13,210 nt of DNA, taken from IMG/VR virus record IMGVR_UViG_2671181040_000012. One strand, 5' to 3'. Below, in pieces: positions 9,001 to 12,000 of the stretch. Each line of letters begins with the position of its first letter. Within the stretch, counting starts at the first letter, position 1. The position numbers were made by a program. The stretch comes from a virus (Duplodnaviria > Heunggongvirae > Uroviricota > Caudoviricetes).

Positions 9001-12000
9001 CGAATACCCAGAACAGGGATTGCCTCGTTTACATTAACAGTGACGGAGGTTTGCCCTTTCTGAACCTGCGCATCAAGGTTAGTTACCGCATCACCCGTTT
9101 TTACTTCCCACGGAGTTACCTTCGCTACCGGAGTCAGTGTACCGCCAATTACTACAGAAGTACCATTACCGTTTTGCCCCCAGCCAGAAGCCATCGCTGA
9201 ACAAGACACCACAGCAGAAGCCGCTACTGCCAGCGCAATCAGTGTTTTTTTCATTGAAAGATTCCCTATAAACATTAACTGAATAAAAACAGCAACCAGA
9301 TAAAAACATTCATATCAAAAGTGTTACTGTTTACCCGTAAACATCACAAACGTTGCAATTCACGTTGTCTTTAAAAAAGTACGGGAGTATCCTCCCGTAA
9401 ATTAGAAAGACTCTGATTGCTTACTTGTTATTGTTTACAGGGACGCATGTTAGAGTTTAATCGGACATTAGTTTTTAAACTAATGCTTCCCCTTCCGTAT
9501 ATTCTCTTTATTTACCGTCATCGCACTGACCTGTATTCAGCAGGCTGTTCCGTGGCACATCCCGGGATATTTAATTACGCCTTACGGTAGCTATTTCCTG
9601 CGGGTCCTTTCCGGAACCATTAACACCACGGGGCGGCAGACGCGCAGATTTTCACTATTTATGAAAATTTTTCCGGGAAAAAGCATGTCGGTACTTCTTG
9701 CATGTAACATTATGTTTTTATTGAAACTAACTATCATAAACATACGACACCATAACGCCGGAAAATCCCGTTTTTCAGGCGTTTCATGTCGGAGGTGGTT
9801 TTTGATGAGGATTTGATAAATGAATGTTAACAAAAAGAGACTGGCAGAGATTTTCGGTGTTGATCCGCGCACAATTGAACGCTGGCAGATGCAAGGGCTT
9901 CCCCATGTATCTGGTGGCGGAAAAGGTGTGGAGGTGACTTTCGACTCTGCACAGGTGATCGAATGGTATGTACAGATGGAGAAGGAGATCGAAAACGAAA
10001 AACTCCGCAGGGATCTTGATGATTTACGTGCTGCTGGTGAATCAGATTTACAGCCAGGCACAACAGAGTACGAACGCTACCGCCTCACCAGAGCACAGGC
10101 TGACGGGCAGGAACTGAAGAACGCCAGGGAGACAGGAGAGGTTATAGATACCGGCTTTTGTATGTATGCACTGTCTAAACTGGCGCAACAGATTTCAACC
10201 ATCATGAATAGCTTGCCCCTTACGATGCAAAGGCAGTTTCCCGCGATGACTCCGGCAATGATCGATGGCCTGAGGAGGGAAACAGCACGCGCCTGTAATG
10301 CGTGCGCTAAAACTGCCGATAACCTGCCTCGCATTCTGGGAGACTATCTGATGGAAACAACCGGAAACGTGCCGGAGAAATTACGGCAACAGAAAGGTGA
10401 GTGACAGCCGCGCAATTATTGAACAAAACTGAGAAAGGATCTGATAACGTCATTTTTGGCCCAGAATGACCACTGTCAGATCCTTTCTTTTTTTGATGAT
10501 TTTACGATTAAACAATGAGTTACAGAGAAGAAGAACGGATCTGACTTTTCCCGAAAAATTTTCATAAATAGTGAAAATCTGCGCGTCTGCCGCCCCGTGG
10601 TGTTAATGGTTCCGGAAAGGACCCGTGAAAATTCCCCGCCCCTCGCGGCACTGTGAAAGGTGTTTTTTAGGGAGCCCCTTTTCAGCCCATAAAACTGAAA
10701 AAATAGCGGTTTTTTAGTCTGCTGGTGGAGTGAGTTTTTTTTAACGATGCCAGCAATGGCGCGGGTTTGGCGTGGTTTTCTCTGATAGGTTTTATCTATC
10801 AAGTCTGTGCACACCTTCCCAAAAAAAAGTTTTCGAACCTGCGGCGATGTGAATAAGGGTTGGCGGGCGGTCCCGGACAGCCAGGGCTGCAGGGATTTGA
10901 TCCGCCCCTCCCGTTGATGATAACCGTTATCAATTGCCCAACCAGCCGGATAGTGACATATCGTGACGCGCCGTGACACTGCCACCAGCACAATAATGAA
11001 CGTAAAAAATCACATACCAGGAATGCGACGGCCTGAAGCATTGCCAGAACTCCCCATACCACCACAGCGGAGAACGGCAAAGCACAGATAAAAAAATACC
11101 CCGTGATTACGGGGCGGAAGGATAACAGCCATCAGGAAATGTTAGCTACCACAAAGCAAATAACCATGAACAACGATTAAGAGTACGGAGAATAACCGTT
11201 CGTTCATGCCAGATAATGCCATCAGGCCAGGACGATGGCAACGCACTGGCTATAACGCATCGCCACCAGCCTTGTGGGTTATCACGTAGCAGTACCGGGA
11301 TCCCGGTATCGTGATGCGGCATGATTCAGCGATAAGCATCACCGCTCCCGCTCACATTTGACACAGGCAACTCCATCTGGCAGGTGAAAATCAGATTTAT
11401 TTATATATTTCAATTAATTGCGAACTGGTCTAATGACAGGGGAGAAAAAAGATTGTACAGGTAAAAACAGAAATAACTTTTAATTATCAATACATTACCA
11501 CACATGCTGCCGCCGCCATGAAAATGCAAAAACCAGCCTTTTTTCGCGCGTCCATCGCCCCGCGGTAAGGGTACCCCACCAGGAGGACCCACGACGATCG
11601 GGGTATTTCATCAACGTCATGCGTTATGCCGGATTAGGTGCGTACGTAATACGTATGCACATCCCGGACAGGAGCAGCCAGAATTGCGCCTCTGACGTTG
11701 TTTTGTGGTTATCCCCCTGCCATGAGTCATCGCAATAGTTTTATGCGCCCTGCGTTGCGCTGGTGGGCTTTTCCACCATTGGTGGGAAACATGGCACCAC
11801 ATCCACCAGCTTAAACGCGCTTCACCTTCCCGGCATCAGTCGCCACAATTACGGCATTGTTTTCCATCACCCTGGAGGCCATGACAATGACCGAAGCCGA
11901 AATGCTCAAAATGATTCGCCAGATTGCCGGGATCAGACCACCAGCAGGCAAACAGGAGGCCACGCAGCCGGACAGCGTTATCGCTGAGAACTATGCGCGT

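Follow-up and report, generated by a model that had tools for sequence, protein, structure and literature searches.

Carrying the cohesive-end (cos) site of a helper phage suffices for transducibility, as with the P2 cos on satellite P4 or the cos of laboratory cosmids. These have a single cos of a single specificity, and P4 also remodels the capsid. Here we analysed a 13,210-nucleotide stretch of DNA (IMG/VR record IMGVR_UViG_2671181040_000012; hereafter the window) that lies in an Escherichia coli satellite of the phage-inducible chromosomal island (PICI) type and that, unlike P4 and cosmids, carries several cos types. Our subject is positions 10627-11517, a part without credible open reading frames (ORFs), for which the original prediction proposed a noncoding RNA, the cosQ-side flank of an inverted cos, or decayed genes. 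Our comparison with phages and related islands suggests that it is probably cis-acting packaging-module DNA, namely, an array of cos sites with different specificities.

A precedent for such an array is EcCICFT073: both of its lambda-family cos sites are functional, and its multimers are packaged into capsids of full size (PMC6092414). As described (Fillol-Salom 2018, 2019; Murialdo & Feiss 2022), it resembles our island in being an E. coli PICI with int and alpA and in having multiple lambda-family cos sites, in which cosQ and cosN resemble those of phages and cosB is divergent. Multimer packaging by lambda-like helpers belongs to EcCICFT073 and would extend to our island only by analogy. EcCICFT073 has a cos-rpp layout and no terS, whereas our island encodes a full-length Nu1-type TerS, with relatives also encoding a DUF1441-type TerS. 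In addition, and unlike EcCICFT073, our island has an extra cos of the P27/HK97 type, and its cos sites occur in inverted pairs. HK97 was reported to be insensitive to the RppA of EcCICFT073 (PMC6739421), so that a classical E. coli PICI with an HNH-type cos would reach beyond the helpers known so far. We came across no account of such a site in the literature searched. Two cos per PICI are already known, and what appears new here is the HNH-type third cos and the segment inversions described below. A parallel exists in Staphylococcus aureus pathogenicity islands (SaPIs) of the SaPIbov5 type, for which we rely on the account in PMC6092414, citing Quiles-Puchalt 2014. According to that account, these satellites carry the helper's cos, and the helper terminase requires an HNH nuclease. 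As far as the account goes, they differ from our island in their Gram-positive host, in their unrelated sequences and in having a single cos type on each island instead of three specificities, SaPIbov4 having two putative sites.

The window matches E. coli MB06102 (NZ_CM129889.1) with 100% identity; there, the element is inserted beside tRNA-Pro, between yejM and yejO, and is framed by 26-bp direct att repeats 14.4 kb apart. It is a PICI-type satellite island of ~14.4 kb. The gene marks of Gram-negative PICIs are present (tyrosine integrase, AlpA [PF05930] and a DUF927 primase), and the island gene list in the RefSeq annotation contains no capsid, tail or lysis genes. We compared it with 14 further islands, 7 from complete E. 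coli genomes and 7 from IMG/VR. Identities of segments are mean pairwise values over 8 islands, which are only ~8-16% diverged.

Read along the minus strand, the stretch holds a cdtI-type cosB with a terS stub, a terminator block, spacer 2, a P27-type cos, spacer 1 and the flank of a lambda-type cosQ (Table 1). The lambda-type, P27-type and cdtI-type cos sites of this array share one polarity.

The P27-type site is one of the features that set the island apart from EcCICFT073. Its homology spans the region between HNH and terS in P27-family phages, cohesive-end sequence included, with 80% identity to phi467, 89% to the OkiPb01695 prophage and, over 51 bp that include the annotated cos-site, 96% to phiP27. 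The 10-mer CGCCCGCCAA is identical to its counterpart in the OkiPb01695 prophage. With the HNH side at 10936 and the terS side at 10785, the polarity is that of the lambda-type cos. The 22-nt core was found in >119 IMG/VR contigs and, in contigs with terminase-region genes, lies nearly always ~27 nt after the HNH stop and before terS/terL. This is the order HNH, cos, terS, terL of phiP27- and HK97-like phages, with which the island shares the core, the 10-nt cohesive-end equivalent, the polarity and the whole intergenic region. Unlike the phage sites, the island copy has no HNH, terS or terL alongside, as judged by tblastn, and a satellite-specific extension replaces the terS side. The absence of these neighbours makes it an orphan, satellite-type copy and leaves the homology unaffected. 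HK97 proper was rejected as the source, since its genome ends align neither with the window nor with phi467, which designates a P27-family site. The record ends of mEp235 were uninformative as a marker of the cut site, that record starting at the terS ATG.

The phage homology of this segment ends at both gene borders, and the flanks are unmatched. By these alignments, the cos segments are cis-acting sites taken from phages and trimmed at gene borders, because no remnant of HNH, terS or terL extends beyond 15-16 codons. The P27-type cos is also the best conserved of all segments (94.3% identity, 88% invariant columns, almost gap-free). These data bear on another explanation, by which the cos pieces would be inert, harmless scars of island-helper recombination, for example, by joining of cohesive ends, with one lambda-type cos in use. 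Decay is indeed ongoing in the terS stub, in an internally deleted terS of the DUF1441 type on the left, and in variable cosB deletions; the close kinship of the islands makes conservation a weak argument; and a matching prophage was not found in the host genome. Scars are nevertheless hard to reconcile with a segment trimmed exactly to the intergenic cis site, and with its being the best conserved and least gapped although the adjacent spacer decays. Moreover, the P27-type cos and spacer 1 are kept in 15/15 islands and in two other PICI-like families, and a second P27-type site is retained near attR. We therefore regard the scar explanation as unlikely and the packaging array as the better account of this segment.

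Spacer 1 shows 91% mean identity and can be aligned with the end regions of two other elements, the PICI-like VG12A2 (L144) and USVAST219 (L145), which is like a capsid-forming PICI (cf-PICI) and has genes for capsid, protease, portal, HNH, terS and terL. Both have a P27-type cos with a spacer-1-like extension at the element end, just downstream of a homologue of the 95-aa gene found in the window at 11887-12171 (phrog_1561). The P27-type cos with spacer 1 thus looks like a satellite version of a cos common to several PICI families. In USVAST219, the usual gap between HNH and terS holds a further cos-like sequence, which is more divergent (the loci in these elements are L145 8000-8160 and 10739-10857 and L144 8001-8147). 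On the other side of the P27-type cos, toward HNH, spacer 2 contains GTGAC three times, at 10953, 10963 and 10973, that is, exactly 10 bp apart; related islands have four copies with 10-11 bp spacing. These repeats might form an array of protein-binding sites.

A second P27-type cos-like site, CGCCCGCCTC, closer to phiP27, lies ~840-930 bp past the right end of the window (L001 15650-15740). It comes after a second set of iterons, TAACCCGC, and before attR, in the orientation opposite to that of the first. We had considered L083 and L100 as an independent island lineage with a P27 cos of its own and rejected this, the alignment being with the second, attR-proximal site. In one IMG/VR genome (2802429220), an island (L023) occurs together with a prophage contig on which a P27-type cos stands between HNH and terS (L095). 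This contig and the OkiPb01695 prophage have HNH sequences with 100% identity, and the L095 prophage is a candidate natural helper of the island.

The lambda-type site was placed by alignment with lambda and phage DE3, whose 12-nt cos site is annotated as GGGCGGCGACCT. With blastn against phage records, 10473-10632 (minus strand) matches lambda-like phages, and the ORF-free stretch begins 3 nt to the right of the lambda-type cosQ. The cdtI-type site was recognized by the 91% identity over 217 bp between 11374-11590 (minus strand) and positions 13-229 of phage cdtI. The entire span 11332-11590 is matched by phage HannyBb, with 89% identity over 258 bp. The cdtI match extends from the cohesive-end region through the interval before terS into the first codons of this gene, which is of the DUF1441 type. 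In both minus-strand sites, cosQ lies 22-23 nt upstream of cosN, and both GGGCGGCAGACG and GGGCGATGGACG share their alignment columns with the annotated lambda/DE3 cos site and with cdtI 1-12, as in lambda-family cos sites. The two flanking inverted repeats named in the original prediction both exist. The lambda-type pair (9601-9680 and 10546-10625) has 98% complementary arms. The right inverted repeat corresponds to the cosN-cosQ part of the cdtI-type site, 11549-11590, within a repeat pair (7958-8030 and 11518-11590) that is 89% complementary. As for the proposal that the stretch is the cosQ-side flank of the inverted cos, the packaging theme stands, but only ~10618-10632 belongs to that cos, and the rest holds two further packaging signals.

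The AT-rich stretch noticed at 11400-11470 is real as well, but our promoter scan did not call the promoter-like sequence proposed there. It is part of the cosB region, because it is 91% identical to cdtI ~100-180, between the cohesive end and the start of terS. The window has three copies of the IHF consensus where 0.59 would be expected, and two of them are mirror-symmetric in the two cdtI-type cosB regions. The presumptive cdtI-type cosB has this IHF consensus and 91% identity to the cosN-terS interval of cdtI; TerS-binding repeats were not identified in it. On the left side of the island, only the first 7 codons (8174-8194) and the last 10 codons (8309-8338) of the DUF1441-type terS are left. 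Related islands, L005, L006, L019 and L023 among them, retain an intact copy.

Table 1. Packaging-related and neighbouring features of the island, in positions of the window
Feature	Position	Strand	Basis or remark
Left cdtI-type cos copy	7958-8030	+	Partner of 11518-11590; followed by an IHF site (8049-8061) and remnants of the deleted DUF1441 terS
F4/K88 fimbrial subunit	8463-9275	-	Near the remnants of the left DUF1441 terS
Left lambda-type cos copy	9602-9680	+	Partner of 10546-10625; followed by cosB type 1 and terS
Nu1-type small terminase gene terS	9820-10404	+	Pfam Phage_Nu1, E 1e-69, full-length
cosB (type 2), lambda-type cos	10405-10583	-	Aligned with lambda cosB; abuts the terS stop codon; left of 10627-11517
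cosN-equivalent 12-mer GGGCGGCAGACG, lambda-type	10584-10595	-	Same alignment columns as GGGCGGCGACCT
cosQ GGGTCCT, lambda-type	10618-10624	-	Aligned with lambda; invariant in 8 islands
Spacer 1, rich in A/T tracts	10633-10784	-	terS-proximal extension of the P27-type cos; phages have terS there
Orphan P27/HK97-type cos	10785-10936	-	Whole HNH-terS intergenic region of P27-family phages; neither gene present
10-nt cohesive-end equivalent CGCCCGCCAA	10860-10869	-	phiP27 'cos-site' is CGCCCGCCCC (depositor annotation)
22-nt core of P27-type cos	10890-10911	-	Searched in IMG/VR contigs
Spacer 2, indel-rich	10937-11062		83% identity, 18% gaps; deletions differ between islands (8 islands)
Intrinsic terminator	11088-11115	-	7-bp G+C stem, 4-nt loop, T-run
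21-codon ORF MNERLFSVLLIVVHGYLLCGS	11142-11207	-	Overlaps a 15-bp hairpin
Sigma-70 promoter-like site	11213-11241	-	TTGCCA, 17 nt, TG-CATTAT; 9/12 matches, extended -10 (promoter scan)
DUF1441-type terS stub, 16 codons then TGA	11326-11376	-	tblastn with cdtI gp01 residues 1-15, 80%; DNA aligns with cdtI 185-229
cosB, cdtI-type	11377-11548	-	Homology to cdtI; contains the IHF consensus 11485-11497
cosN-equivalent GGGCGATGGACG, cdtI-type	11549-11560	-	Alignment with lambda and cdtI
cosQ GGGTCCT, cdtI-type	11584-11590	-	Alignment with lambda and cdtI

The absence of credible ORFs from 10627-11517 was borne out. RefSeq/PGAP annotates nothing between terS, which ends at 10404, and the 95-aa gene that starts at 11887. 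The ORFs touching the region would encode 171 aa (10476-10991, minus strand), 93, 58 and 60 aa, and none of the sizeable ones has a match in Pfam or PHROGs. Frames also break in relatives, which have indels of 1-2 nt within homopolymer runs. In 10600-11085, the longest stop-free stretch is 95-107 aa in 7 related islands versus 136 aa in the window, so that the 171-aa frame is not kept there. With tblastn of HNH, P27-type TerS, TerL, DUF1441 and cdtI gp01, the only hit was to codons 1-15 of cdtI gp01, at 11376-11332. The idea of decayed genes consequently holds for the 16-codon terS stub and for nothing else that tblastn could detect; by this comparison, the region is not made of decayed genes, those 16 terS codons excepted. 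The parts 10626-10790 and 10937-11335 had no blastn match among 50,697 phage records.

The latter part includes a small conserved block that could carry a function of its own. The hairpin followed by a U-run, which the original prediction placed on the minus strand, was recovered by a terminator scan (stem 11115-11098, T-run to 11088), and its stem, CCCCGTAATCACGGGG, is invariant in 15 islands. Upstream of it lies an ORF of 21 codons, preceded by a promoter-like site that would start transcription at about its ATG (11207). Mean pairwise identity is 93.9% over 11131-11330. One could argue that this small gene, ~11088-11241 on the minus strand, is the functional core, producing either a small RNA (sRNA) of ~115 nt or a leaderless mRNA for a hydrophobic peptide of 21 residues, and that the cos DNA is secondary. 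Several observations favor it: the -10 of the promoter-like site is extended, both hexamers are conserved with the exception of one island, the terminator is invariant, and the DNA in between is nearly so. Indeed, among 12 unique island sequences, the ORF shows one synonymous GAA/GAG and one ATG-to-GTG change. The block can fold into hairpins with a z-score of -2.8, and both single-sided changes preserve base pairs, one being also synonymous.

Other observations go the opposite way. The promoter scan yields no more sites than in shuffled sequence, which makes the promoter evidence weak, and one island lineage no longer has the stop codon of the ORF. The longer frames (58 and 65 aa), called by PGAP in some genomes, break in several islands, and the 65-aa product occurs in only 4 E. 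coli clusters among 5.8 billion proteins, which does not make a protein family. Searches of Rfam gave only chance-level eukaryotic matches, both at gathering thresholds and at permissive E-values. The covariance check that had been suggested, run with RNAalifold on 11 island sequences, found 0/27 predicted pairs with compensatory changes, in sequences that are too similar to each other. In favor of a noncoding RNA, the block is conserved and combines hairpins with a promoter-like site and a terminator, but it shows neither an Rfam match nor a compensatory change. Finally, a small gene would account for only ~150/891 bases. For these reasons, it is quite improbable as the core of the stretch, and we keep the cos array as the preferred reading. 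The block 11088-11241 could be an sRNA, a small peptide gene or a terminator shielding the downstream cos sites.

How might such an array be used? From the composition, polarity and conservation of the modules, the presence of the island's own terS and the island size, we infer the following steps. Excision and replication would give concatemers of the ~14.4 kb island. The terminase of each helper would recognize its own cos on the concatemer, cut there and package leftward. Candidate helpers are a lambda-like phage, possibly acting with the Nu1-type TerS of the island, a cdtI-like phage with a DUF1441 TerS, and a P27-family phage with its TerS, TerL and HNH. A trimer of ~43 kb would fit the 38-49 kb range of helper genomes (phiP27, 42.6 kb; phi467, 38.6 kb; cdtI, 47.0 kb; and lambda-like phages). 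The same recognition might instead harm the helper, the orphan sites acting as decoys that titrate its terminase or provoke futile cutting and so interfere with the phage. PICI interference with helper packaging is known (PMC6739421), and the sites have no adjacent phage genes, as decoys could. However, if terminase can bind a cos on a concatemer that replicates and has a suitable unit length, it would also package this DNA, so that decoys overlap with the packaging array itself. We give this possibility very little credence and retain the multi-helper array as the more probable reading.

A number of points weigh against this multi-helper reading. Cutting and packaging at any of these sites are predicted from their sequence. 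Conservation may in part reflect recent common descent, given the ~8-16% divergence of the islands. The host strain has no second match to 10627-11517 and, accordingly, no resident prophage with a matching P27- or cdtI-type cos. A P27-type terminase may need more than the intergenic region. On the right, the cdtI-type cosN (GGGCGATGGACG) is not the same as in the left partner, and some islands have lost part of the cosB there; not all cos sites need be functional. Last, islands of this family are rare. Among 5,426 complete E. coli genomes, about 18 have >=80% of 10627-11517, IMG/VR has 6-7 contigs, and the block formed by the lambda-type cosQ and the P27-type cos had no match in two GTDB-wide pattern scans of representative genomes.

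Helper range limits the spread of satellites with virulence or defence cargo. If the array functions as proposed, three terminase systems, including an HNH-dependent one, would find their packaging signals on this single island, whose helper range would go far beyond that of the model PICI, restricted to lambda/phi80. The seemingly empty intergenic DNA of islands merits screening for orphan cos sites.

Comparison between strains revealed that the modules change place. The block comprising the lambda-type cosQ, spacer 1, the P27-type cos and the terminator block is intact in 15/15 islands and is moved or inverted as a whole. The inner segment 9601-10625, with cosB1, terS and cosB2, is inverted in L005 (5058-6083), L006 (5093-6117), L015, L016 and L023 with respect to the window and L007. 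The outer segment 7958-11590, 3.6 kb bounded by the cdtI-type pair, is inverted relative to the island backbone in L014 (strain A36; 2614-6188) and L022, and in L014 the flanks are swapped within ~35 bp containing cosN. Yet another segment order is found in L020, L021 and L024. The lambda-type cores exist in two cosN variants, GGGCGGCAGACG or GGGTACGGGTAC, both of which are present in L005-type islands; the 98% identical arms of the window result from homogenization of the core to one variant, as in some other islands. Taken together, the alignments point to repeated exchange at cos cores. The route may be homologous recombination, recombination stimulated by terminase breaks, or rejoining of identical cohesive ends.

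These arrangements recall Hin/Gin inversion and the R64 shufflon, where segments between inverted repeats occur in either orientation and where nesting or overlap of the repeats makes several arrangements possible. Unlike in those systems, we saw no dedicated invertase gene, the repeats are cos cores of 73-80 bp, and orientation differs between strains. A speculative extension, which we put forward as a tentative idea and think rather doubtful, would be a 'cos shufflon': every cos type would be kept as an inverted pair (for the P27 type, by means of the attR-proximal copy), and exchange in cores of ~35-80 bp would repeatedly reshuffle the packaging region, changing which cosB and terS face which way. 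The P27-type cos, which cf-PICI-like elements share, could also let a classical PICI use HNH-dependent helpers, or the terminase and small capsids of a cf-PICI, as a satellite of a satellite.

The cos-adjacent protein of the island was compared with known small terminases and with Rpp. Against PDB, it matches lambda TerS (6hn7_B) with E 9e-39 and RppC with only E 0.009; it is thus a Nu1 homologue of full length and not an Rpp, which would be a winged-helix protein of 139-154 aa. Among the other island genes are those for SSB, ProQ and PerC, and the cargo is a fimbrial subunit of the F4/K88 type. Directly after the DUF927 primase gene, at 5996-6148, lie iterons, TAACCCGCAAA, in direct and inverted copies with a 21-bp period, which presumably form the replication origin of the island. 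Finally, in L016 (STEC383), a near-identical island has clpS/clpA instead of yejO as its right flank, indicating that at least two chromosomal sites are used.

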